Shown here: in pieces, positions 3,329-61,717 of the stretch
Position numbering within the stretch: the first letter of the stretch is position 1
Layout of the letters: each line of letters begins with the position of its first letter
Assembly (NCBI GenBank): GCA_965226875.1
Contig: OZ245439.1
Span: forward strand, 3,382,316-3,446,315
DNA: 64,000 nt
Reading direction: 5' to 3'
Origin: Dehalococcoidia bacterium
GTDB lineage: Bacteria > Chloroflexota > Dehalococcoidia > Lucifugimonadales > UBA3495
Translations under genes and position numbers: made by a program
The notes under the pieces: model-generated
Databases searched by the model: none
Seen by the model: only the letters and a program-made list of their open reading frames with translations
What the model was told of the DNA's origin: nothing

Positions 3329-4897
3329 TTGGTTGGCAAAGTCTACCTCATCGGCGCGGGGCCCGGGGACCCGGGACTGCTGACCGTCAAGGGCCGCGAG
3401 GCGCTGGAGCGGGCGGACGTCGTCGTCTACGACCGGCTGGCCCACCCGTCGCTGCTGGACCACGCGCCGCCTTCCGCCGAGCGGGTCTTCGCGGGCAAGG
3501 CGAGGGGGCAGCAGGAGCTGACCCAGGACGGCATCAACGACCTGCTGGTGGAGCGGGCGCGAGCCGGGCTGCGCGTGGCGCGGCTCAAGGGCGGCGACCC
3601 CTTCGTCTTCGGGCGCGGCGGCGAGGAGGCCCTGGCCCTGGCCCGCTGCGGCATCCCCTTCGAGGTGGTGCCGGGCGTCTCGTCGGCGGTGGCCGCTCCG
3701 GCCTATGCCGGCATCCCCGTCACCCACCGGGGCATCGCCGCCGGGTTCACCGTGGTCAGCGGCAGCGAAGACCCGTCCAAGCCCGAATCGTCGGTGCACT
3801 GGGAGGAGCTGGCCCGCTCGCTGGCCGCCCACGGCGGAACGCTGATGACGTTGATGGGCTGGGCCTCCATCGAAAAGATTCTGGAAGCGCTGCAACGGGC
3901 CGGATTGTCCGCCGATACGCCGGTGGCCCTGGTGCAGTGGGGCACCTGGAACCGTCAGAGAACAGTGACCGGAACGCTGGCCACCGCCGCCGCCAAGGGC
4001 CGCGACGCCGGGTTGGCCGCTCCGGTAGTGGCGGTCATCGGCGAGGTAGTGCGCCTCCGCGAGGAGCTGGCCTGGTTCGACAACCGTCCGCTGTTCGGCC
4101 AGCGCGTGCTGGTCACCCGCTCCCGCACCCAGGCGTCGCGGATGTGCGAGCTGCTGGAGGACGCCGGGGCAACGGCCGTGGAGCTGCCCGCCATCGCCAT
4201 CGCTCCACCCGAGGATTTCGCGCCGCTGGACGACGCTGTGGCGCGCCTGTCGTCCTTCGGGTGGGTCATTTTTGCCAGCGTCAACGCCGTGGACTCCGCG
4301 TTCGAGCGGCTGTACGCGCAGGGGCTGGACGCCCGCGCCTTCGGGTCGGCCCGCGTCGGCGCCATCGGCCCCGCCACCACCGAAGCGCTGGAGCGGCGCG
4401 GCATCCGCCCCGACTTCACGCCGACGCGCCCGGTGTCGGCAGCGGCGCTGGAAGAACTGACGGCCTACGATTGGAGCGGCGTCCCGGTGCTGTTGCCCGC
4501 CGCCGACATAGGCCGCGACGAACTGGCCGATGGCCTGTCCCGCCTCGGCGCGGACATTGAGCGGGTGACCGCCTACCGCACCGTCACGCCGCCGGACGCG
4601 GCACAGCGGGCGCGGGACGCCTTCGCCAACGGCATAGACATCGTGACCTTCACCAGCTCATCCACAGTCCGCAACCTGCTGGCCCTGTTGGAAGAGGGCG
4701 GCGGGAAGGGCCGGGAGGCGCTGAACGGCAGCCTGGTCGCCTGCATCGGCCCGGTCACCGCCGGCACCGCCCGCGAGCTGGGCCTGCGGGTAGACATCGA
4801 GGCCGTGGAGCACACTGTCGACGGGCTGGCCGACGCCCTGACGCAGCACTTCACCGCAGCCAAGTCCGCCAATCCTGTTAATCCCTCAATTCTGTAA
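3329..4897 (+). CDS. cobA-hemD: uroporphyrinogen-III C-methyltransferase fused to uroporphyrinogen-III synthase
   Basis: N-half VYLIGAGPGDPGLLT...RLKGGDPFVFGRGGEE (TP-methylase); C-half HemD-like; TTG start at 3329. Confidence 0.9.
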   Translation: MVGKVYLIGAGPGDPGLLTVKGREALERADVVVYDRLAHPSLLDHAPPSAERVFAGKARGQQELTQDGINDLLVERARAGLRVARLKGGDPFVFGRGGEEALALARCGIPFEVVPGVSSAVAAPAYAGIPVTHRGIAAGFTVVSGSEDPSKPESSVHWEELARSLAAHGGTLMTLMGWASIEKILEALQRAGLSADTPVALVQWGTWNRQRTVTGTLATAAAKGRDAGLAAPVVAVIGEVVRLREELAWFDNRPLFGQRVLVTRSRTQASRMCELLEDAGATAVELPAIAIAPPEDFAPLDDAVARLSSFGWVIFASVNAVDSAFERLYAQGLDARAFGSARVGAIGPATTEALERRGIRPDFTPTRPVSAAALEELTAYDWSGVPVLLPAADIGRDELADGLSRLGADIERVTAYRTVTPPDAAQRARDAFANGIDIVTFTSSSTVRNLLALLEEGGGKGREALNGSLVACIGPVTAGTARELGLRVDIEAVEHTVDGLADALTQHFTAAKSANPVNPSIL

Positions 4898-41381: not shown

Positions 41382-41711
41382 ATGACCGATACGGCCAAGT
41401 TTCACGATATGGGCGGGCGGCCCAACGACGAACCCATCGACCAGAGCGAGCACGTCCTGATGGACTGGGAGCGCCGCATCGACTCCATCCGCGGCGTCTT
41501 GGGCGAAAAGGGCTACCTGGGCGTGGACGAACTGCGTCGCGCCATCGAGGCCCTGCCCCCGGAACGCTACGAGTCGCTCAGCTACTACGAGCGTTGGACC
41601 GAGGCAGTGGAGGCACTGCTCGTCGAGAAAGGCGTCGTGACTCCCTCCGAGCTGGACGCGACGATGGCCCGGCAGGAAAACAAATCCCCTCTCCCTCCGG
41701 GGGAGGGTTAG
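41382..41711 (+). CDS. nitrile hydratase beta subunit, N-terminal half (separate ORF)
   Basis: FHDMGG...MDWERRID...YYERWTEAVEALLVEKG; last 9 codons and the TAG lie in a REP element. Confidence 0.75.
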   Translation: MTDTAKFHDMGGRPNDEPIDQSEHVLMDWERRIDSIRGVLGEKGYLGVDELRRAIEALPPERYESLSYYERWTEAVEALLVEKGVVTPSELDATMARQENKSPLPPGEG

Positions 41712-41726
41712 GGTGGGGGCGTCCCC
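41686..41726. repeat. REP family 1, orientation A, at the junction of the two NHase beta ORFs
   Basis: CCCCTCTCCCTCCGGGGGAGGGTTAGGGTGGGGGCGTCCCC; ends 1 nt before ATG 41727. Confidence 0.75.
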
Positions 41727-44925: not shown

Positions 44926-44970
44926 GGGGGGACGCCCTCACCCTGACCCTCTCCCACAGGGAGAGGGAAC
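44926..44970. repeat. REP family 1, orientation B, between large and medium subunit genes
   Basis: GGGGGGACGCCCTCACCCTGACCCTCTCCCACAGGGAGAGGGAAC. Confidence 0.7.
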
Positions 44971-44976
44971 TAATTG

Positions 44977-47325
44977 TTAAGCCTTGGCGTCCTGGATGGC
45001 CTGCCAGACCCTTTCGGGCGTCAGCGGCATCTCCAGGCGGGTTACGCCCAGTGGCCTGAGGGCGTCTATGACTGCGTTGTAGATGGTGACCGTCGAGGCG
45101 ATGGTGCCGGTCTCGCCGATGCCCTTGACGCCCAGCGGGTTGTGGGGCGAAGGCGTTTCCGACGACAGCGTCTCGATGTCTGGAACCATGTGGGCCTTGG
45201 GCAGGGCATAGTCCTGCATCGAGCCGGTGAGCAACTGCCCGGCTTCGTCATAGACCACGCCTTCCCACAGCGCCTGTCCGGCGCCCTGCACCACACCGCC
45301 ATGGACCTGGCCCTCGACTATCATCGGGTTGATCTGTGGGCCGCAGTCGTCCACGGCCACGTAGCGGCGCAGCTCTATGTGGCCGTTATCGGTGTCAACT
45401 TCAACCACCGCGACGTGAGCGCCGAAGGGGTAGACGAAGTTGGGCGGGTCATAGAAGGCCGACGCCTCCAGGCCCGGCTCCATGCCCTCCGGCATATTCC
45501 AGGCCACGTTGGCCATCAGCGCGATTTCCTGGATGGACTTGCTCTGGTCGGGCGCGCCACGGACGAAGAACTGGCCGTCGGCGTACTCAATGTCGGCCTC
45601 GGCGGCCTCCAGCAGGTGAGCCGCCAGGGCGCGGGCCTTGTCTTTGATCTTGTTCAGGCCCAGCAGCAGGGCGCCGGCGCCCACCGCCGTGGTGCGGCTG
45701 CCGTAGGTGCCCCAGCCCATCGGGGTGTTGTCGGTGTCGCCGTGGACGATTTCCACGTCCTCCACCGGAACGCCCAGCGTGTCGGAAACGACTTGGGCGA
45801 AGGTGGTCTCCTCGCCCTGTCCGTGGGGCGAGACGCCGACGTAGGCGTTGACCTTGCCCGTCGGGTGGAAGCGCACTACCGCGCTCTCCCACAGTCCGCC
45901 GCCGAAGCCGACCGCGCCAGCCACCTGGGACGGGCCAAGGCCGCAGATTTCGCAGTAGGTGGAGATGCCGATGCCGGTGTAGTGGCCGTGCTCGCGGGAG
46001 TGGGCCTGCTCTTCGCGGAGGTTGGCGTAGCCCACGTGGTCAAGGACCATGTCCAACGCGCCCTCGTAGTCGCCGCTGTCGTAGGTCAGGCCGGGGGCCA
46101 CATCGTACCCGTTCTCGAACTTGGGAATCAGGTTGAGCCGGCGCACCTCTGCCGGGTCCTTGCCCACCTCGACGGCGAGCAAATCTATCAGCCGCTCCAG
46201 CAGGAAGGTGGCCTCGGGACGGCCCGCGCCGCGGTAGGCGTCAACTGGCGTGGTGTTGGTGAACACGCCGTAGATGTCGGCCTTGGTAGCGGCCAGTTGG
46301 TATGGGCCGCTGTACATCAGCCCGTGCAGTATGGTCGGCACCCCCGGCGCGGCGGTGGACAGGTAGGCGCCCATGCCGGCGTGAACCACCGAGCGTACTC
46401 CGATTATCTTGCCGTCGCTGGTGGCGGCCATCTCCACCTGCTGCACATGGTCCCGCCCGTGGATAGTGGCCTGGAAATTCTCGGAGCGGGTCTCGGTCCA
46501 TTTGACCGGGCGGTTCAGCCGCATGGCGCAGAAGGCCGCGATCATCTCGTCGGCGTAGACCGGTATCTTGCTGCCGAACCCGCCGCCCACCTCGGTGGCG
46601 ATGATCCGTATCTTGTGCTCCGGCACGCCGGTTACCAGCGAGCCCAGGAAGCGGGCGATGTGGGGGTTCTGGCTGGTGCTCCAGATGGTCAGCTCGCCCA
46701 TGGAACTCAGCCAAGTGGCCACCGCGGAGCGCGGCTCCATGGCGTTGGGGACAAGGCGCTGCTGGATGATGGTGTCGCTTACGACCACTTCGGCCTCGGC
46801 AAAGGCGGCGTCGGGATCGCCCCCGACGGCCACCCAGTGGAAGGCCTGGTTGTTGGGGGCGTCTTCGTGGAGCTGCGGCGCGCCCTCCGCCATAGCCGCC
46901 ACGGGATTGATCACGGCGGGCAGCGGCTCGTAGTCAACGCTGATCAGTTCCAGGGCGTCCTCGGCCTGGTAGCGGGTTTCCGCCACCACTACGGCCACGG
47001 CGTCGCCCTGGTAGCGCACCACGTCCTTGGCGATGGCCGGGTGGGCCACGGCCTTGACGTCGGATTCCGGCGGAATCCAGGCGCACGGGATGGGCGCCAG
47101 GGCGCCCTCGGTGTCGGCCCCGGTGTAGACCGCGATGACGCCGGGCGCGGAGGCCGCGGCGGTGGTGTCGATGCCGGTGATGCGGGCATGGGCATGGGGG
47201 CTGCGCAGGATGGCGGCATTCACCATTCCCGGCAGGGTAACGTCATCGGTATAGGTGGCGTCGCCGGTGATGAGACGCGGGTCCTCACGGCGGCGGATGC
47301 CTGAGCCGAATATCCTTGTCGTCAT
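44977..47325 (-). CDS. molybdopterin-binding large subunit of a xanthine-oxidase-family hydroxylase (form II CoxL-like, AYRGAGR)
   Basis: Active-site loop VDAYRGAGRPEA (form II, not the form I VAYRCSFR); GGGFG motif. Confidence 0.88.
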   Translation of the reverse strand: MTTRIFGSGIRRREDPRLITGDATYTDDVTLPGMVNAAILRSPHAHARITGIDTTAAASAPGVIAVYTGADTEGALAPIPCAWIPPESDVKAVAHPAIAKDVVRYQGDAVAVVVAETRYQAEDALELISVDYEPLPAVINPVAAMAEGAPQLHEDAPNNQAFHWVAVGGDPDAAFAEAEVVVSDTIIQQRLVPNAMEPRSAVATWLSSMGELTIWSTSQNPHIARFLGSLVTGVPEHKIRIIATEVGGGFGSKIPVYADEMIAAFCAMRLNRPVKWTETRSENFQATIHGRDHVQQVEMAATSDGKIIGVRSVVHAGMGAYLSTAAPGVPTILHGLMYSGPYQLAATKADIYGVFTNTTPVDAYRGAGRPEATFLLERLIDLLAVEVGKDPAEVRRLNLIPKFENGYDVAPGLTYDSGDYEGALDMVLDHVGYANLREEQAHSREHGHYTGIGISTYCEICGLGPSQVAGAVGFGGGLWESAVVRFHPTGKVNAYVGVSPHGQGEETTFAQVVSDTLGVPVEDVEIVHGDTDNTPMGWGTYGSRTTAVGAGALLLGLNKIKDKARALAAHLLEAAEADIEYADGQFFVRGAPDQSKSIQEIALMANVAWNMPEGMEPGLEASAFYDPPNFVYPFGAHVAVVEVDTDNGHIELRRYVAVDDCGPQINPMIVEGQVHGGVVQGAGQALWEGVVYDEAGQLLTGSMQDYALPKAHMVPDIETLSSETPSPHNPLGVKGIGETGTIASTVTIYNAVIDALRPLGVTRLEMPLTPERVWQAIQDAKA

Positions 47326-54606: not shown

Positions 54607-55295
54607 TGGCCGGCGAAAGCACCACACTGCTCTACCGCTTGGGGAGACCATTTGCCCGCTTCTGCTTCGGAACCTTCGGGCGGATGGAAGTCATCGGCGA
54701 AGAAAACGTGCCGCCTCACGGGCCGCTGATAGTGGCCTGCAACCACCTGGCCTATACCGACCCGCCGCTGCTGGTGGCGGCCATCCCCCGGCCCCTTAAC
54801 TTCATGGGTAAAAAAGAGCTGTTCGGCAACCCGGTGGGGAGATTCCTGATGCGCAGCTTTCACGTTTTTCCCTACCAGCGGGGCGGAGCCGGCGCCGGGA
54901 CGCTGCGAATCCTGCTGGGCCTGCTGGAACAGGACCAGGCGGTGGTCATATTCCCCGAGGGGACCCGAAGCAGGAGCCATGCGCTCCAGGAGGCGCAGTT
55001 GGGGGTGGTGTACCTGGCCATGAAGTCACAGGCGCCCATCCTGCCCGTGGGAGTGACCGGAACTCAGAACCTGAAGGCGTGGCGAATGCCCGCGCCCCTG
55101 TGCCGGCTCACCGCCAGCATCGGCCCGCCCTTCACCCTGCCGGTGGTGGAGGGCCGCATCCCCCGACCGGTGATGCACAGTATGTTGCGGATGATCATGG
55201 AGCGGGTGGCGTTGCAGTTGCCGCCGGAGTATCGTGGCGTATACGACCCTTTGAGGTATCGGACTGCGGGAAATCAGGAAGCTAGGAGCAAGTAA
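54603..55295 (+). CDS. plsC: 1-acyl-sn-glycerol-3-phosphate acyltransferase
   Basis: NHLAYTDPP (HX4D) and FPEGTRS motifs; ATGA overlap with cmk. Confidence 0.88.
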   Translation: MMAGESTTLLYRLGRPFARFCFGTFGRMEVIGEENVPPHGPLIVACNHLAYTDPPLLVAAIPRPLNFMGKKELFGNPVGRFLMRSFHVFPYQRGGAGAGTLRILLGLLEQDQAVVIFPEGTRSRSHALQEAQLGVVYLAMKSQAPILPVGVTGTQNLKAWRMPAPLCRLTASIGPPFTLPVVEGRIPRPVMHSMLRMIMERVALQLPPEYRGVYDPLRYRTAGNQEARSK

Positions 55296-55520
55296 ATGCA
55301 GCAGGCATCCAAGTTCGGCATCTACTTAAACGATGGGGAGAAGAAGGTGGTCCGCATCAACTCCCCCTACTGGTTCCCCGAAGAACCCGACTGGGTGTTC
55401 GTGACGCCGGAGGTCAACGCCACGCTGCTCAGCATCCGCGAGCTGGCCCACGAGCAGGGCCTGAGCGCCGACGCCGGTGAGCTGACCTGGGGCACCATCC
55501 CGATGCGGAAAGAGGAGTGA
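55296..55520 (+). CDS. hypothetical small protein (74 aa)
   Basis: ATG immediately follows the plsC TAA; no family recognised. Confidence 0.45.
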   Translation: MQQASKFGIYLNDGEKKVVRINSPYWFPEEPDWVFVTPEVNATLLSIRELAHEQGLSADAGELTWGTIPMRKEE

Positions 55521-55541
55521 CACCAGGCCGGATGCAACCCC

Positions 55542-55859
55542 CTAAAGCCCCGACTCCCCCGTGCGCAGGGTAAAAGCGGACTCGACGTTGGTCACAAAGA
55601 CTCTGCCGTCGCCGGGGAAGCCAGTGGAGGCTGCGGCCTGGATGCAGTTGGCGACCTCTTCCACCTGAAAGTCCTCGACTACCACCATGAACATACACTT
55701 GGCCAGCTCGTCGTAGAAATGGTCGCCGACCTGGACGCCCTGCTGCTTGCCGCGTCCCAGCACATCCCATTTGGTCATGGCCGGGAATCCATCGTTGGCC
55801 AGGGCCGCCGCTACTGTGACCTCTTTCTCGGGCCGGATAATCGCTCGCACCATTTTCAT
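55542..55859 (-). CDS. P-II family nitrogen regulatory protein (divergent)
   Basis: MKMVRAIIRPEK...GRGKQQG...GDGRVFV...RTGE; AAGGAGA SD; 22 nt after the nirA stop. Confidence 0.8.
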   Translation of the reverse strand: MKMVRAIIRPEKEVTVAAALANDGFPAMTKWDVLGRGKQQGVQVGDHFYDELAKCMFMVVVEDFQVEEVANCIQAAASTGFPGDGRVFVTNVESAFTLRTGESGL

Positions 55860-55881
55860 TGCCGCATCTCCTTTGCTCTGG

Positions 55882-57459
55882 CTATGCTTCGTAGTCAACG
55901 CCCGGCACATCGGCCGTTGTCAACTCATTTGCGTTGGTGAATCCGGTCTGCCTCAGCCTTTCGATAAGCCCTGGCAGGACAGCACCCAGCGTGGACACCG
56001 GCACTTGCTCCATCAGCTTCTCCGCCGGGCGGGCGCCGGGGCCGGTGCTGCCGCCGGCGAAGATGGTGACCGCGTCCACCACCTCGCCCTCGAACCGCGT
56101 CTTGCCGCCCTGGAAACCGATGTCGGCGGCGTGATGGTTGCCGCAACCCGCCGGGCAGCCCGACCAGTACATCCGCAGTGACGCCGCGTCGGGGTAGTGG
56201 GCGTCCAGGGCCTCGACTACCCGGCGGCTGACGCTCTTGGTCTCGATCAGGGCCAGGTTGCAGTAGTCGTTGCCGGTGCAGCTCACCAACCCGCGTGTGA
56301 AGGGGCCGGGGTCGGGCGACAGGCGGGACAGCAACGGCTCGTCGAGCAGCGCCGGCAGGTTGGCCTCCAGCACGTCGGCGATGATGGCGTTCTGGCTGAC
56401 GGTCAGGCGGATTGCGCCGGAGCCGTAGATCAGGGCCAGCCGGGCCAGCTCGGTCATGTCGTCGGCGCAGGTGCGCCCGGTGGGTACACTCAGGCCGACG
56501 GAGAATAGCCCCTCCTGCTTCTGCGGGTTCGCTCCCAGGTGGTCGGCGTGATGGTCGTGCCTGGCGTCCTCTCCCGCTCTTGGCAGGGGGCGGCCCCAGC
56601 GTTCTTCCAGCCGCTCCCGGAACAGGTCTACGCCCCAGTCGTCCAGCAGGAAGGCCAGCCGGGCCCGCGTGCGTTTTTCCCGGGAACCCTCGTCGCGGAA
56701 CATCAAGGTGATGGTTGCGGCCAGCCGCGCCGCCTCGTCTGGTTTAACGAACACGTCCAGCGGCTGGGCGACGGTCATGCCGCCGGACCCCATCTTGCCG
56801 CCGACGGCGACGTTGAACCCCTTCCACATATTCAGGGCAACGCCGCCCGGCCCGAAGGCGGGCGTCATGGCGATATCCTGGGTTTCGGCGTGGATGCAGT
56901 TCTCTCGGCAGCCGGTGAATGCCACGTTGAGCTTGCGGGGGAGGTTGGTGTACTCGCGGTTGTTGAGGAACATCCGGGTGAATTCCTCGCTGGCCGGGGC
57001 CGCGTCGAACAGCTCGTTGGGCGTCAGGCCCGCCAACGCGCAAGTGTTAGTTCCCCGGATGTTGTCCATGCCAGTCTGGAGGGAGGACAGGTCAATATCA
57101 CGAAGCGCGTCCAGGATTTGAGGAATGTCGCGTATCTGGATGTCGCGCAACTCAATCTGCTGGCGGGTGGTTATGTCCATCACGCCGCTGCCCAGACGAC
57201 AGGAAAGCGCGGCGAGGGTGGCGAGCTGCGTCGCGGTCAGCCGCCCGTTGGTGATGCGCAGGCGCATCATGAAGCGTCCTGGAGTGGGCTTGCGGAAGAA
57301 CGTGCCGATCCACTTCAGCCGCTCGCGGTCGCCGGGTTGAATGGTTTCCCAGCCCCCGTGCTGCGCCGCCAGTTCGCGGATCTCGTCCAGGATGTTCAGC
57401 CCCGGCTTCTCGGCCTTGATGCGTTCGACCGGATTGCCCGTTTTCGTTGCTGTCGTCAT
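55882..57459 (-). CDS. nirA: ferredoxin-dependent assimilatory nitrite reductase (siroheme/[4Fe-4S])
   Basis: Two nitrite/sulfite reductase repeats; cluster Cys TGC.ENC...SGCPAGCG; next to narK; ATG 57459 preferred over GTG 57471. Confidence 0.85.
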   Translation of the reverse strand: MTTATKTGNPVERIKAEKPGLNILDEIRELAAQHGGWETIQPGDRERLKWIGTFFRKPTPGRFMMRLRITNGRLTATQLATLAALSCRLGSGVMDITTRQQIELRDIQIRDIPQILDALRDIDLSSLQTGMDNIRGTNTCALAGLTPNELFDAAPASEEFTRMFLNNREYTNLPRKLNVAFTGCRENCIHAETQDIAMTPAFGPGGVALNMWKGFNVAVGGKMGSGGMTVAQPLDVFVKPDEAARLAATITLMFRDEGSREKRTRARLAFLLDDWGVDLFRERLEERWGRPLPRAGEDARHDHHADHLGANPQKQEGLFSVGLSVPTGRTCADDMTELARLALIYGSGAIRLTVSQNAIIADVLEANLPALLDEPLLSRLSPDPGPFTRGLVSCTGNDYCNLALIETKSVSRRVVEALDAHYPDAASLRMYWSGCPAGCGNHHAADIGFQGGKTRFEGEVVDAVTIFAGGSTGPGARPAEKLMEQVPVSTLGAVLPGLIERLRQTGFTNANELTTADVPGVDYEA

Positions 57460-57464
57460 AGTTT

Positions 57465-57499
57465 CCCCCACCCTAACCCTCCCCCGGAGGGAGAGGGGA
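57465..57499. repeat. REP family 1, orientation B, between narK and nirA
   Basis: CCCCCACCCTAACCCTCCCCCGGAGGGAGAGGGGA; its GGGTGGGGG (minus strand) sits at SD distance from the nirA ATG. Confidence 0.7.
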
Positions 57500-57553
57500 T
57501 TTGAGTGCTAACCCTCCGTCTGTCCTCCGTCTGTATGGAGGTGACTGGCGGTT

Positions 57554-58939
57554 CTAGGCCTCGCTGTACAGGGCCATCGGGACGCGCTTGGCGTAAGCGG
57601 GCGAGACGGCCAACATGCCACGGCCCATCACCCGCTCCATCACCCGCCGCTCTTCGGTCTCACGCTCCGGGGAGAAGCGCACCACCAGCACCGGCGAGGA
57701 GGCCACGGTTACGGTTGCGCCGAGGTAGAGCAGGGCCATTTCCGTGCTCATAGACTCCATGCGGAACAGGAACCCGGCGGCCACCGCTCCGGCGTTGCCG
57801 CCCGCGCCGACGATGCCGGCCACCGCGCCCAGCGCCTTCTGGTTGATGAACGGCACTACGGAGAAGGTCGCGCCCTCGGACATCTGCACAAACAGGCTGA
57901 ACACCAGCATCGCGCCTATTGCCAGCGGCAGTATGTCCATCCGCGAGAACACGACAAGGGCAAACCCCTCAACCAGAAGCACAGTCCCCAAGAACAGAGT
58001 CCGGCCCCTCAGCCCGAAGCGGATGCCCACCTTGTCGCCGATGGCGCCGCCCAGCGTGCGGGCGAAGAGGTTCATCAGCCCGAACAGGCCGGCAACCAGG
58101 CCCGCCAGACCGACGCCCAGACCAAAGCGGTCGTGGTAGTAGAGGGCGGCGATGTTGTTCATGGTCAGCTCGACGCCGAAGCAGGCCCCGTAAATCAGGA
58201 AGAGCGCCCAGACCCGGTGGTCCTTGGCCGCTTCCAGGAAGGCTCTCGTCCTGGCGCCGGGCGGCTCCTTCGCCCGCTCCTCCTGGGCTAGTTCCATGTC
58301 CGGGGAGTCCTGGGTGAACTTGAAGTAGGCGATCCCCATCAGGAACAGCGCCACGCCCGGCACCACCATGGCGATGCGCCACCCGATGACGTCGGCAGCG
58401 CCCAAGGCCACGATGACGCCCAGCACCAGCGGCATCGCCATCTGCGTTACGCCACCGCCCAGGTTGCCCCATCCGGCGGTGGTTGCGTTGGCCGTTCCCT
58501 CCACGTTGGGAGCAAACATGACCGAGGTGTGGTACTGCGTGATGACGAAGGAGGCGCCGATGATGCCGATGGCCAGCCTGAACAGCAGAAAAGACTCGTA
58601 GCTGTTGGCCAACCCGATGGTCATCACCGGGAATGAGCCGATAATCAGCAGCGCCGAATAGGTGATGCGGGGGCCGATGCGATCGCACAGCCAGCCCACC
58701 ACCAGCCGGGCCGCGATGGTCACCGCCACCGAGGCGATGACGGTGTTGCCGATCTCGGCCTTGGTAAGTTGCAGGTCGTCGCGGACGATGGCCATCATCG
58801 GCGCAATGCCGAACCAGCCGAAGAAGGCGAGGAAGAAGGCCATCCAACTCATGTGGAACACCCGCATATGCGGGTGCCCAAAGCTGAACAGCGGGATCCT
58901 GGTGGCTTTGTGAGTTTGGGGGTCCACTCCGATGTTCAT
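57554..58939 (-). CDS. narK: MFS nitrate/nitrite porter (NNP family)
   Basis: Both nitrate signature motifs present: AGWGNLGGGVTQ and GIVGAGGNAGAV; 12 TM-like segments. Confidence 0.9.
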   Translation of the reverse strand: MNIGVDPQTHKATRIPLFSFGHPHMRVFHMSWMAFFLAFFGWFGIAPMMAIVRDDLQLTKAEIGNTVIASVAVTIAARLVVGWLCDRIGPRITYSALLIIGSFPVMTIGLANSYESFLLFRLAIGIIGASFVITQYHTSVMFAPNVEGTANATTAGWGNLGGGVTQMAMPLVLGVIVALGAADVIGWRIAMVVPGVALFLMGIAYFKFTQDSPDMELAQEERAKEPPGARTRAFLEAAKDHRVWALFLIYGACFGVELTMNNIAALYYHDRFGLGVGLAGLVAGLFGLMNLFARTLGGAIGDKVGIRFGLRGRTLFLGTVLLVEGFALVVFSRMDILPLAIGAMLVFSLFVQMSEGATFSVVPFINQKALGAVAGIVGAGGNAGAVAAGFLFRMESMSTEMALLYLGATVTVASSPVLVVRFSPERETEERRVMERVMGRGMLAVSPAYAKRVPMALYSEA

Positions 58940-59083
58940 CGCTGCCCTCGTTCGGATATTCCCAACGAGTTAGTATTCTGATTTGTGATTTTGTAAGGGA
59001 AACAGCCGTGCGCCCTGGCTCGTATCCTGAAAAAGAGTCGCGTAGACCGGAGGGAGTGGGCGCGCGGTTGCGCACCCCTGCAT

Positions 59084-59118
59084 GGACGCCCTCACCCTCT
59101 CCCAGAGGGAGAGGGGAC
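59084..59118. repeat. REP family 1, orientation B
   Basis: GGACGCCCTCACCCTCTCCCAGAGGGAGAGGGGAC. Confidence 0.7.
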
Positions 59119-59131
59119 ATAAGGGCCGTTC

Positions 59132-59309
59132 CTAGAAATCTGGCCGGAAACCCTGATTCTCCCCAAGCAGTCGTTTTCTTAACGTCGATTATCGATGAAA
59201 CGGTGGGTATTGCAACGTCTTACATGCACTACTGGGCCATATAAGACTGGAATACGTCTGCTTGGCGTAGCGCAAAACCCGGCCGATGGCTTTCCGGCCA
59301 GACTTCTAG
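59132..59309. mobile_element. MITE-like element, family A, copy 2 (reverse orientation relative to 6046-6223)
   Basis: Same 178-bp length and TIRs; its terminal CTAG supplies the TAG stop of the Mo-protein ORF. Confidence 0.8.
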
Positions 59310-59956
59310 ATGTCGGCGGAGGCTGCGCCGGTGCCGACCTTGGCAACCACGATATGAGCCTTTTCCTGGCCAGGCGCGCCGAGGACGGCGGTCTTGCTCT
59401 GGCCGAGGAGCCGCTTGATGCCGTGGGGGTCGCGCACAAAGCCGCGCACCTGGTTGAGCCACTTCACGCTCTTGTAGCCTTGGAGGAAGGGAACCCACAG
59501 CCGCACCGGGCCGCCCAGCTCGTGGGGCAGACGCTCGCCCTCAATTTCGTAGACCAACAGGACGCGGGGATCTCGGGCCAGCGACTTGGGCAGGCTCTCG
59601 AAGTACATTCCGTCGGCGGAGTAGAAGGACAAGAAGCGCGCGCCAGCCATGGCTATGCCCATCGCGTCCAGCAGCACAGGCAGGCGGACGCCGGTGACCA
59701 TCGGCGTCTCGGACCAGTTGAATATCTGGCAGACCAGCGGCGTCGGCTCCTGCACCTTGGGTAGCTTCTGCAAGACTTCCCAGGTGGCCACGGCGGTCTT
59801 GCCGCTGATGTCGGTGAGCCGCAGGTCCCAGTCCTCCAGCGCCTTGCGCTCCGGCATAGGATAGAGAGACAGGACGGGCAAGGGTTCGGCCTCGAAATCC
59901 ATGGCCGCGAACTGGTCCTTGAACTTGGGGTAGTTGACGTTGGGACGGTTGACCAT
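59306..59956 (-). CDS. sulfite-oxidase-family molybdopterin-binding protein (minimal Mo domain, YedY/YuiH-like)
   Basis: LVCQIFNWSETPMVTGVRLPVLL (Mo-ligand Cys context) and GGPVRLWVPFLQGYKSVKWL; no heme/FAD/dimerisation domains. Confidence 0.75.
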   Translation of the reverse strand: MVNRPNVNYPKFKDQFAAMDFEAEPLPVLSLYPMPERKALEDWDLRLTDISGKTAVATWEVLQKLPKVQEPTPLVCQIFNWSETPMVTGVRLPVLLDAMGIAMAGARFLSFYSADGMYFESLPKSLARDPRVLLVYEIEGERLPHELGGPVRLWVPFLQGYKSVKWLNQVRGFVRDPHGIKRLLGQSKTAVLGAPGQEKAHIVVAKVGTGAASADI

Positions 59957-59960
59957 GACC

Positions 59961-60320
59961 TTACACCTTCGCCGCTACTGATTCGGGCATCACGGATTCC
60001 TCCGGGGAGAGAATCATCTCCTCCACCGGGCAGATGAACACTTTGCCGTCGCCAAAGTTATCCGATTTGTTGACTGAGACGAGGGATCGAACCAGCCTGC
60101 CAGCCATTTCGTCGGGGACTAGCCAAGTCAGCATCCGCTTCGGCAGGAACTGCATCACGCCGTCGTCGCTTCCGTTGACGGGACGCATATAGCGCAGCCC
60201 GCGCTGCTTGCCCCGGCCCATGACGCGGATGTGAGAGCATTCGGACAGGCCCATCGCCTGGGCCGCATCCATTGTCTCCTGCCACTTCTCGGACCGGATA
60301 ACGGCAATTACTTCCTTCAT
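59961..60320 (-). CDS. P-II family protein (divergent), translationally coupled to the Mo-protein gene
   Basis: MKEVIAVIRSEK...GRGKQRG...FLPKRMLTWLVPDE...GDGKVFICPV; stop 4 nt before the Mo-protein ATG. Confidence 0.75.
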   Translation of the reverse strand: MKEVIAVIRSEKWQETMDAAQAMGLSECSHIRVMGRGKQRGLRYMRPVNGSDDGVMQFLPKRMLTWLVPDEMAGRLVRSLVSVNKSDNFGDGKVFICPVEEMILSPEESVMPESVAAKV

Positions 60321-60367
60321 GGCACCGCGCCTCCCATGGGATATAGATGACAGATTAGGGCAAGGGT

Positions 60368-60450
60368 GTTTCGGCGCAGTTGCGTGACTATTGCCGGTCA
60401 GTTACGAATTCGTTACGTCTTCTTTACGTTTGCGTTGCGGTTTTGTTAAG
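60368..60450. promoter_or_regulatory. array of eight GTTnCG-like hexamers spaced exactly 11 bp apart upstream of the PII-like/Mo-protein operon
   Basis: Hexamer starts 60368 GTTTCG, 60379 GTTGCG, 60390 ATTGCC, 60401 GTTACG, 60412 GTTACG, 60423 TTTACG, 60434 GTTGCG, 60445 GTTAAG. Confidence 0.6.
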
Positions 60451-60499
60451 CGCATTCGCCATTCGTCATAAATTCCGGCTGAAGCAAGGCAAATAGAAA

Positions 60500-60537
60500 G
60501 AGGGCGTCGGGAGGAAATTACCCCTCCCGGCGCCCTC
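60500..60537 (-). terminator. GC-rich hairpin followed by a T-rich tract on the minus strand, terminator of the LLM oxidoreductase gene
   Basis: GAGGGCGCCGGGAGGGG-loop-CCTCCCGACGCCCTC then CTTTCTATTT (minus-strand reading). Confidence 0.55.
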
Positions 60538-60565
60538 TGCGCTCTCCGGACGGTGAAGCCGGAGC

Positions 60566-61717
60566 TTAGCCCTTGAAGGCGGGCATCACTTCCTCGGCGA
60601 AGATGCTGAGCTGTTCCTTGTAGACCTCCAGCGGCATACCCATGACGGAGCCGATGTTGACGCGCTCGACGCCGGGATAGCTTTCTTCGGCCTTCTTCAA
60701 GGCCTCGACAGCTACTTCGGGAGTGCCGCAGATCCATCCGCCACCCTCGACCGCTTCTTCCAAAGTGGGCAGCTTGACACCACGGTTGCGCCCGCCAGCG
60801 GCCACCGAGTCAATCTGTTCCTGGCTGAACGCCATGAGGCCCAGCGGGGCGGCGAACTTCATGGCTTCTTCAAAGTAGGGCCTGGCCTTCTCAATAGCCT
60901 TTTCCTTCGACTCGGCAAGGAACAAACGGAAGCCCAGGGCCGCTCCTTCGCCGAGCTTAGTCTCACGTCCAGCGTCCAACTGGGCCTGCTGGTACATCCG
61001 CATCCGCTCGCCCAGGGCCGGCTCGGGAGTGTTGGCCAGCAGGGGCTTGATGCCCGTCCTGGCCATAAACTCGACACCGCGCGGGTTGCCGCTGACCAAC
61101 GGCTGCCAGATCTCCACCGGACGGTTCAGGGGGCGCGGCACCAGGGTCAGCTTCTCCAGTTCGTAGCCCCGGTAAGGGACACGGGCGGGAATCTGGAAAT
61201 GCTTGCCCTGATGGGAGAAGGAGTCCTCATTGAAGGCCTTGATCATGACCTCGACCTGCTCCTCGAACAGCTCGCGGTTGGCGTCGGAGTCGCGCATGGG
61301 CGCGCCGAAGGTCTCGACCTCGCGGGTATGGTAGCCACGCCCCACGCCGAAGATGATCCGGCCCTTGGTCAGGATATCGGCCATGGCGAAGTCTTCGGCC
61401 AGCCGCAGCGGGTGCCACATGGGGGTGATGTTGAAGCCGCAGCCGTACTTGAGCGATTCGGTCTGCGTCGCCAGGTACAGCCCCAGCATCAGCAGGTTGG
61501 GGATGCCCTCGTACCCCTCCGGCTGGAAGTGGTGCTCGGCCATCCAGAACTCGTTGTAGCCGTTGGCCTCCAGGTGCTTGGCGATGTCTAGCGCCCAGTC
61601 GTAGGTCTCGGCCAGCTTCTCGTTGGGATACCAGCGGTCGTTGGCCGGAGTGCCGTCGAAGCCCAGGTTGTCATCAACCACGTGCCCGGCATAGGAAGCG
61701 GAAAAGTTCTTAAACAT
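60566..61717 (-). CDS. luciferase-like (LLM class) flavin/F420-dependent oxidoreductase
   Basis: FWMAEHHF...RIIFGVGRGYH typical LLM motifs. Confidence 0.85.
   Translation of the reverse strand: MFKNFSASYAGHVVDDNLGFDGTPANDRWYPNEKLAETYDWALDIAKHLEANGYNEFWMAEHHFQPEGYEGIPNLLMLGLYLATQTESLKYGCGFNITPMWHPLRLAEDFAMADILTKGRIIFGVGRGYHTREVETFGAPMRDSDANRELFEEQVEVMIKAFNEDSFSHQGKHFQIPARVPYRGYELEKLTLVPRPLNRPVEIWQPLVSGNPRGVEFMARTGIKPLLANTPEPALGERMRMYQQAQLDAGRETKLGEGAALGFRLFLAESKEKAIEKARPYFEEAMKFAAPLGLMAFSQEQIDSVAAGGRNRGVKLPTLEEAVEGGGWICGTPEVAVEALKKAEESYPGVERVNIGSVMGMPLEVYKEQLSIFAEEVMPAFKG

Follow-up and report, generated by a model that had tools for sequence, protein, structure and literature searches.

Which enzyme would reduce nitrate to nitrite in a bacterial nitrate-assimilation locus that lacks the usual reductase is the question raised by a small gene cluster of a sponge-associated Dehalococcoidia/SAR202-type symbiont. 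In this study, we have analyzed a 64-kb stretch of its genome (the window), in which the locus lies on the minus strand at positions 55542-60320. Our reading of the open reading frames (ORFs) gives the minus-strand order PIIa (a PII-like protein), a small molybdenum protein of the sulfite oxidase (SO) family (hereafter the Mo protein), an element resembling a miniature inverted-repeat transposable element (MITE) with a repetitive extragenic palindrome (REP), the transporter NarK, the nitrite reductase NirA and a second PII protein, PIIb. To our knowledge, all characterized prokaryotic nitrate reductases belong to the dimethyl sulfoxide (DMSO) reductase family, and a nitrate reductase (NR) built on the SO fold is held to be a eukaryotic invention. 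Based on sequence comparisons and gene neighborhoods, we propose, with a probability of roughly 65%, that the Mo protein represents, as the catalytic subunit, a class of prokaryotic assimilatory nitrate reductase unrecognized before and controlled by PII. The most economical reading of the cluster is that it probably fills the nitrate-to-nitrite step where the usual reductase is missing.

The molybdenum protein and its neighbors in the locus

The Mo protein has a single recognizable domain over its 216 aa, PF00174 (Oxidored_molyb, 85 bits against a cutoff of 24), and the family scan gave no dimerization, heme or flavin domain; it shows no match to PF00384 and has no Fe-S cluster. The two motifs that had been quoted for it, LVCQIFNWS and GGPVRLWVP...KSVKWL, are both present, and in the family profile alignment its Cys76 aligns with the Mo-ligand Cys98 of Arabidopsis thaliana SO. 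Scanning one genome per species revealed relatives in at least 129 genomes, and the 80 loci examined here (20 kb each) are those of the closest relatives of the query. In 79 loci, conservation reaches at least 93% for C76-Q-I-F-N-W81, R91, S113/D115, E120 and D129-P-R131, for the molybdopterin (MPT)-binding motif G148-G-P-x-R152...Q159-G-Y-K-S-V-K-W166, and for a family-specific tail, D176-P-x-G-I-K-R-L-L-G-Q-S187. The AlphaFold (AF2) model of the protein has a pLDDT of 82 and a pTM of 0.82, with low confidence in the C-terminal residues 181-216. In Foldseek searches this model matches SorA, YedY, plant and chicken SO and Pichia NR about equally (query TM-score, TMq, 0.54-0.64; probability 1.0; 20-26% identity), and further matches, at TMq 0.45-0.48, are with the PruR pterin-binding proteins. 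The Mo protein belongs to the sulfite oxidase (SUOX-fold) superfamily, with both the Mo-ligand Cys and the pterin-binding motif. As read from the sequence, its N-terminus (MVNRPNVNYPKFKDQ) contains no signal peptide, twin-arginine motif or hydrophobic region, and the protein should therefore be cytoplasmic.

The initial annotation was accurate on the coordinates and strand of the five ORFs (Table 1) and on the 4-nt gap between the PIIa stop and the Mo start. It was also right that no DMSO-reductase-family enzyme is encoded in the window, as judged by a Pfam scan of the ten largest ORFs and tblastn with Escherichia coli NapA. Its description of the Mo protein as the sole molybdoenzyme of the window has to be corrected: a second one, a 782-aa Mo enzyme of the xanthine-dehydrogenase/aldehyde-oxidase/CO-dehydrogenase large-subunit family (PF01315, PF02738, PF20256), is encoded at 44977-47325. 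This enzyme is unrelated to nitrate, and its presence means that the genome must make molybdenum cofactor (Moco) anyway.

Both signatures (G-x-G-N-x-G) of the NNP (nitrate/nitrite porter) family that had been noted for NarK can be read in its translation, as AGWGNLGGG and GAGGNAGA; its TIGR00886 score falls just below the cutoff of 312 bits. NirA contains two PF01077 and two PF03460 domains, and the cutoff of the ferredoxin-nitrite reductase model that it matches (NF007125) is 594 bits. For nirA, the ATG at 57459 is favored as the start, since the GTG further upstream, that of the longest ORF, is overlapped by a REP-like palindrome. The two PII proteins differ in the T-loop: compared with that of E. 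coli GlnB, it is longer in PIIa (GRGKQRGLRYMRPVNGSDDG) and shortened in PIIb. As the GlnB/GlnK equivalogs give them 34-50 bits against cutoffs of 181-202, we regard both, by sequence, as PII-family proteins and not as GlnB/K orthologues.

Conserved neighborhood, PII fusions and cofactor genes

The hosts of the Mo family are uncultured, known as metagenome-assembled genomes (MAGs) from Dehalococcoidia/SAR202, Nitrospirota, Lindowbacteria, Tepidiforma and Thaumarchaeota, the Nitrospirota being represented by Leptospirillum-like, Manganitrophaceae/Troglogloeales, Nitrospira-labelled and groundwater Nitrospirales genomes. A profile search of 1.84 billion representatives returned 22 with E<=1e-30, after which the scores dropped to those of the SO family in general; this drop shows that the Mo family is a compact, distinct clade. 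A lack of conserved linkage to nitrate genes had been named as something that could refute the proposal; we found the linkage to be very strongly conserved, in four phyla and two domains. Among the 58 loci with at least 5 kb on both flanks (45 of them from Dehalococcoidia), a siroheme nitrite reductase is encoded within 6 kb of the Mo gene in 56. The Dehalococcoidia loci contain PII in 45/45 cases and have NarK beside the Mo gene in 41/45, with PIIa upstream of the Mo gene in all of them and PIIb conserved at the cluster end. The transporters of the distant loci are all of the NarK family (268-302 bits). When ORFs were clustered over the loci, the only conserved neighbors were the Mo protein itself, PII, the siroheme nitrite reductase and the major facilitator superfamily (MFS) transporter, without any MsrQ-like or cytochrome gene among them. 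The exceptions are two Dehalococcoidia loci, L045 and L046 (9288-11082), which consist of PIIa/Mo/PIIb only, with no NarK or NirA within 6 kb; their flanks carry enolase-superfamily and CoA-transferase genes.

Four architectures can be distinguished. The Dehalococcoidia have PIIa/Mo/NarK/NirA/PIIb, and many Nitrospirota and Lindowbacteria have a Mo-PII fusion followed by PII, NarK, nitrite reductase and PII. In groundwater Nitrospirales, a sigma-54 activator precedes the Mo gene and an NAD(P)H-dependent nitrite reductase gene; in the fullest examples (L058 and L077) the latter two overlap by 4 nt and are followed by PII, NarK, a porin, Amt and PII. Finally, Thaumarchaeota and some Chloroflexota have NirA/Mo/NarK. 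The electron-input module of the nitrite reductase beside the Mo gene also varies by lineage. It is a plain ferredoxin-type NirA in Dehalococcoidia, a NirA with a C-terminal Rieske/NirD-like domain in a thaumarchaeal locus (L068 7958-9913, which passes the ferredoxin-nitrite reductase equivalog cutoff), and, in Nitrospirota, a protein of about 1,000-1,100 aa that joins FAD/NAD(P)H reductase, BFD [2Fe-2S] and siroheme domains.

These data bear on the existing annotation of the family, by which the Mo protein would be a sulfite dehydrogenase or an MsrP/YedY-type sulfoxide reductase that stands near nitrogen genes by chance. Its best NCBIfam matches are indeed SoxC, MsrP, SorT and SorA, the JGI label is 'DMSO/TMAO reductase YedYZ catalytic subunit', a TauE/SafE-family exporter gene is present in thaumarchaeal clusters, and the short C-x-x-x-(x)-W-S loop that follows the Cys may be akin to that of YedY. 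However, no NCBIfam model comes near its curated cutoff (SoxC 47 against 420 bits, MsrP NF003767 27 against 207, SorT 26 against 570, SorA 23 against 600), the protein has neither a signal or Tat peptide nor a dimerization domain, and no locus offers a cytochrome c or MsrQ partner. The linkage to nitrite reductase, NarK and PII across phyla is not what chance would produce, and the Mo family forms a separate clade. We therefore consider a sulfite or sulfoxide enzyme highly improbable.

The tight coupling to PII that had been claimed at the locus extends, in Nitrospirota, to gene fusion. Mo-PII fusions of 367-408 aa occur in 14/80 loci, with the PII-like domain at the C-terminus of the Mo domain, and a database search with a Nitrospirota fusion returned 543 matches, all 120 of the 120 listed carrying PF00174 and PF00543. 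The fused PII domain has a long QRGLR[YF] T-loop in common with PIIa of the window. In the AF2 model of one natural fusion (P0270, pTM 0.57), two well-folded domains are connected through about 50 disordered residues; there is no confident docking between them, so the model is silent on how PII acts.

Genes for the cofactor follow the cluster in several lineages. Nitrite reduction needs no Mo; nitrate reduction does. In a Leptospirillum-like MAG (L082), a single same-strand array runs from Mo-PII through PII, a NarK-type MFS transporter, an NAD(P)H-type nitrite reductase and PII into MoaA, MoaD, MoaE, MoeA, MoaC and MoaB/Mog, in this order, and this Moco set is also found behind the cluster in the thaumarchaeal loci L061 and L068 and in another Nitrospirota locus (L070). 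MobA is absent from these four Moco arrays. SO-family enzymes use Mo-MPT, which contains no dinucleotide, while NasA/NarB need the bis-molybdopterin guanine dinucleotide (bis-MGD) cofactor that is made with MobA; the only DMSO-reductase-family enzyme of the loci, in L063, is accompanied by a MobA of its own. In the thaumarchaeal clusters, a gene for a TauE/SafE-family anion exporter lies between moaA and moaE (L061 5807-6538, L068 14762-15493). As for the usual reductase, no DMSO-reductase-family enzyme was found in 79/80 of the 20-kb loci by inspection of 59 large flanking ORF families and tblastn with NapA. The gene fusions, the linked cofactor genes and this lack of the canonical enzyme near the Mo gene are the observations to which we give the greatest weight.

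Alternatively, the Mo protein could have no catalytic role and act together with PII as a sensor or carrier of pterin or Moco that regulates the cluster, like the SUOX-fold PruR regulators or a Moco carrier protein. The structural matches to PruR would fit this, as would the constant pairing with, or fusion to, a signaling protein and the lack of a conserved redox partner. On the other hand, the Mo-ligand Cys, like the complete MPT-binding motif, is invariant over 79 loci, the presence of Moco genes in the operon points to the production of a Mo enzyme, and the nitrate-reduction step would stay missing. A sensor or carrier role is, in our view, very unlikely.

Proposed mechanism and what weighs against it

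According to the mechanism that we propose, NarK would import nitrate, the Mo protein, as a cytoplasmic, single-domain Mo-MPT enzyme, would reduce it to nitrite, and NirA, or the NAD(P)H-type siroheme reductase in Nitrospirota, would convert nitrite to ammonium. The electrons may come from an external one-electron carrier docking on the Mo domain. The donor would be ferredoxin in Dehalococcoidia, and in other lineages possibly the [2Fe-2S] BFD or Rieske module of the neighboring nitrite reductase. YedY/MsrQ and mARC/cytochrome b5 are precedents for a domain that has Mo alone and receives its electrons from a separate one-electron carrier. PIIa, the proposed regulatory partner of the enzyme, may switch it according to nitrogen and energy status, through 2-oxoglutarate and ATP/ADP.

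Several observations weigh against a nitrate reductase. Both anion-binding arginines of SO and eukaryotic NR (one in the RNH motif and one five residues after the Cys) have no counterpart in the alignment, the aligned positions being L29-S30-L31 and W81; the substrate pocket must therefore be built differently, and its specificity is not readable from homology. By ORF clustering, the Dehalococcoidia clusters have no conserved redox partner. In the closest species-level genome (L001), in which the Mo protein is 96% identical, a deletion of about 1.15 kb has removed most of narK: comparison of L001 10658-11195 with window 59301-57460 shows that only about the first 108 codons of narK are left and run straight into the start of nirA, with PIIa, Mo, NirA and PIIb all intact. 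Some hosts are labelled Nitrospira and, if they are nitrite oxidizers, have nitrite already at hand. Finally, one locus (L063) does encode a NasC/Fdh-like enzyme of the DMSO-reductase family, 3.4 kb from the Mo gene. This 726-aa protein gives its highest score, 612 bits, with formate dehydrogenase alpha and the second highest, 525 bits, with NasC, and may be either a formate dehydrogenase or an assimilatory nitrate reductase; the genes that follow encode a DmsB-like Fe-S protein of 627 aa and a protein containing MobA (L063 4444-9595).

Most of these points would be accommodated if the Mo protein were an accessory enzyme of nitrite assimilation, which would remove toxic N-oxygenated side products (hydroxylamine or N-hydroxylated compounds, for instance) by reduction or turn nitrite into NO, with nitrate either reduced by a canonical enzyme elsewhere or unused. 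The unrelated mARC/YcbX Mo enzymes reduce N-hydroxylated compounds. The absence of the arginines, the Nitrospira-labelled hosts, which as nitrite oxidizers would need no nitrate reduction, the possible NasC-like enzyme of L063 and the retention of Mo and NirA after the loss of narK in L001 all speak for such a role, and the reduction of nitrite to NO is an activity known for SO-family enzymes (reviewed in PMC12300631). This explanation nevertheless leaves several features unaccounted for, namely the whole Mo-MPT pathway inside the operon, the consistent presence of a NarK-family transporter rather than a nitrite channel, and the dedicated PII sensor fused to the enzyme; nor is there another nitrate reductase nearby in 79/80 loci. 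We consider an accessory role unlikely, and assimilatory nitrate reduction our preferred reading.

The erosion seen in L001 has a parallel in L003, where narK is broken by an insertion of about 1.25 kb, and narK seems to be eroding in some sponge symbionts. The MITE and REP reported between the Mo gene and narK proved to be real, as a 178-bp inverted-repeat element and a palindrome. The MITE-like insertion, absent from L001, is specific to the source genome. The GC-rich REP-like palindrome (CCTCTCCCTCTGGGAGAGGGTGAGGG) is present in five copies in the window against 0 expected. In sponge metatranscriptome contigs, the MITE and REP reach a depth of 10^3-10^4, which means that they are highly multi-copy and/or abundantly transcribed in the community. 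For the locus itself, nirA, PIIb, the Mo gene and PIIa are covered by contigs from four sponge metatranscriptome runs, and the PIIa/Mo junction is bridged by two of these contigs; this counts for our reading and is consistent with co-transcription. The depth of this coverage (2-8) is low and contaminating DNA is possible in those libraries, which is a further point against our reading.

Elsewhere in the window, a uroporphyrinogen-III methyltransferase/synthase fusion (TP_methylase and HEM4 domains) is on the route to siroheme, the cofactor of NirA. The gene directly upstream of PIIa encodes a luciferase-like (LLM/F420- or FMN-dependent) oxidoreductase; it is kept there only in the closest genomes (L001 and L008) and is thus probably outside the module. 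A 200-aa ORF near the end of the window is made of repeated EAREA/NEALRRE-type heptad-like units with a hydrophobic C-terminal segment and is probably a coiled coil. An Rfam scan of 55000-61000 found no riboswitch or leader, and the promoter and terminator scan gave counts equal to the shuffle background.

Table 1. Coordinates of the locus, of other features of the window and of Nitrospirota-type nitrite reductases in related loci
Feature	Position	Strand	Evidence or remark
PIIa, PII-like, 119 aa	59961-60320	-	PF00543, 59 bits
Mo protein, SO-family single-domain, 216 aa	59306-59956	-	PF00174, 85 bits
NarK, NNP-family nitrate/nitrite MFS transporter, 461 aa	57554-58939	-	TIGR00886, 295 bits
NirA, ferredoxin-type siroheme nitrite reductase	55882-57459/57471	-	NF007125, 509 bits
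PIIb, second PII protein, 105 aa	55542-55859	-	PF00543, 81 bits
MITE-like insertion, 178 bp	59132-59309		22-nt terminal inverted repeats
REP-like palindrome CCTCTCCCTCTGGGAGAGGGTGAGGG	59089-59114		one of 5 window copies
Second REP-like palindrome, narK-nirA spacer	57471-57496		same repeat family CCTCTCCCTCTGGGAGAGGGTGAGGG
REP-like palindrome, all copies	1548-1573, 41688-41713, 44941-44966, 57471-57496, 59089-59114
Xanthine-dehydrogenase-family Mo enzyme, 782 aa	44977-47325	-	PF01315, PF02738, PF20256
Uroporphyrinogen-III methyltransferase/synthase fusion	3329-4897	+	TP_methylase + HEM4
Luciferase-like oxidoreductase	60566-61717	-
ORF of heptad-like units, 200 aa	63396-63998	-	probable coiled coil
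Nitrospirota-type nitrite reductase	L058 10630-13707
Nitrospirota-type nitrite reductase	L070 9066-12275
Nitrospirota-type nitrite reductase	L082 12794-15988

Relation to known systems and significance

The parallel with eukaryotic NR that the initial annotation implied stands only for the fold. The Mo domain of the Pichia angusta enzyme (PDB 2BII/2BIH) has the same SO-type Mo-MPT fold (TMq 0.61-0.63) at 23% identity, and the Mo protein would share its reaction and its cytoplasmic location; as in fungal nitrate clusters, the Mo gene is clustered with an NNP transporter and a siroheme nitrite reductase. We also considered whether the Mo family is a specific relative of eukaryotic NR and rejected this, since its similarity in sequence and fold is no higher than to SO or YedY. 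In addition, the eukaryotic enzyme has dimerization, cytochrome b5 and FAD/NAD(P)H reductase domains and two substrate arginines, all of which the Mo protein lacks, and the latter has instead the DPxGIKRLLGQS tail and the coupling to PII. A further likeness may exist in the active site. In PDB sequences, sulfite oxidases have a Tyr 19 positions after 'KWL', where an Asn is found in Pichia NR and the engineered chicken SO mutants 3r18/3r19; at the same ungapped spacing, the Mo family has the near-invariant Gln186. An amide residue would thus take the NR-Asn/SO-Tyr position, which we regard as suggestive only, because the HMMER alignment reaches only to G179 and this part of the model is of low confidence. 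The Mo family is an independent branch and not a prokaryotic version of the eukaryotic enzyme, which is restricted to eukaryotes (PMC6400420).

The assimilatory enzymes known from bacteria and archaea also invite comparison. NasA/NasC/NarB have the role proposed here, a cytoplasmic location and the NarK and NirA/NirB neighborhood in common with the Mo protein. However, they are proteins of about 700 aa with an entirely different fold, bis-MGD, an N-terminal [4Fe-4S] cluster and PF00384, unlike the 216-aa Mo-MPT protein without an Fe-S cluster. In the Nas system of Paracoccus, the Rieske ferredoxin NasG is common to the nitrate and nitrite reductases, a sharing that is paralleled by the NirA-Rieske fusion beside the Mo gene in L068. 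MsrP/YedY of E. coli (PDB 1XDQ; TMq 0.54-0.58) is likewise a single-domain SO fold without a dimerization domain, and it is a reductase fed by a separate partner, as proposed for the Mo protein. It differs by its Tat export to the periplasm and its pairing with the membrane heme protein MsrQ; the Mo protein has neither a signal peptide nor an MsrQ neighbor, and its MsrP score is far from the cutoff. For PII, the closest likeness is with NifI1/NifI2, a PII pair of archaea and some bacteria that switches off nitrogenase by direct binding. Like PIIa/PIIb, these are two dedicated PII paralogues in a nitrogen-acquisition operon, one with a distinctive T-loop. By analogy, a direct control of a metalloenzyme may be presumed here, with a Mo-MPT enzyme as the target and with the sensor covalently fused in Nitrospirota.

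In the full-text literature searched, we did not find a prokaryotic SO-fold nitrate reductase or the Mo family by name, and NCBIfam (June 2026) has no model for the family, whose database names are limited to 'molybdopterin-dependent oxidoreductase', 'YedYZ catalytic subunit' or 'PII'. A 2025 comparison of Nitrospirales gives a PF00174 gene only as 'MsrP' among lineage-specific genes, and its gene table does not cover NasA/NarB. What is new here is a candidate for assimilatory nitrate reduction on an SO fold that is known in this role only from eukaryotes, the PII fusion being a further new feature. We think it somewhat better than an even chance that the family represents a fourth structural class beside Nar, Nap and Nas: a minimal Mo-MPT SO-fold enzyme, independent of eukaryotic NR in origin, controlled directly by a dedicated and in some cases fused PII sensor, fed by ferredoxin or a nitrite reductase module, and serving as the nitrate-assimilation route of uncultured lineages.

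If this proposal is true, nitrate reduction on the SO fold evolved at least twice, and the Mo-PII fusion would be the first PII sensor covalently wired to a molybdoenzyme. With 216 aa and a single cofactor, the Mo protein would be the smallest known nitrate reductase, attractive for mechanistic studies and for engineering. Furthermore, metagenomic surveys that use only nasA, narB or narG would under-count nitrate assimilation in lineages that are globally abundant (SAR202, sponge symbionts, groundwater Nitrospirota and some Thaumarchaeota), and the SAR202/sponge Dehalococcoidia, the Leptospirillum-like and Manganitrophaceae Nitrospirota and some Thaumarchaeota, which marker-gene surveys now score as nitrate-incapable, would be able to assimilate nitrate.

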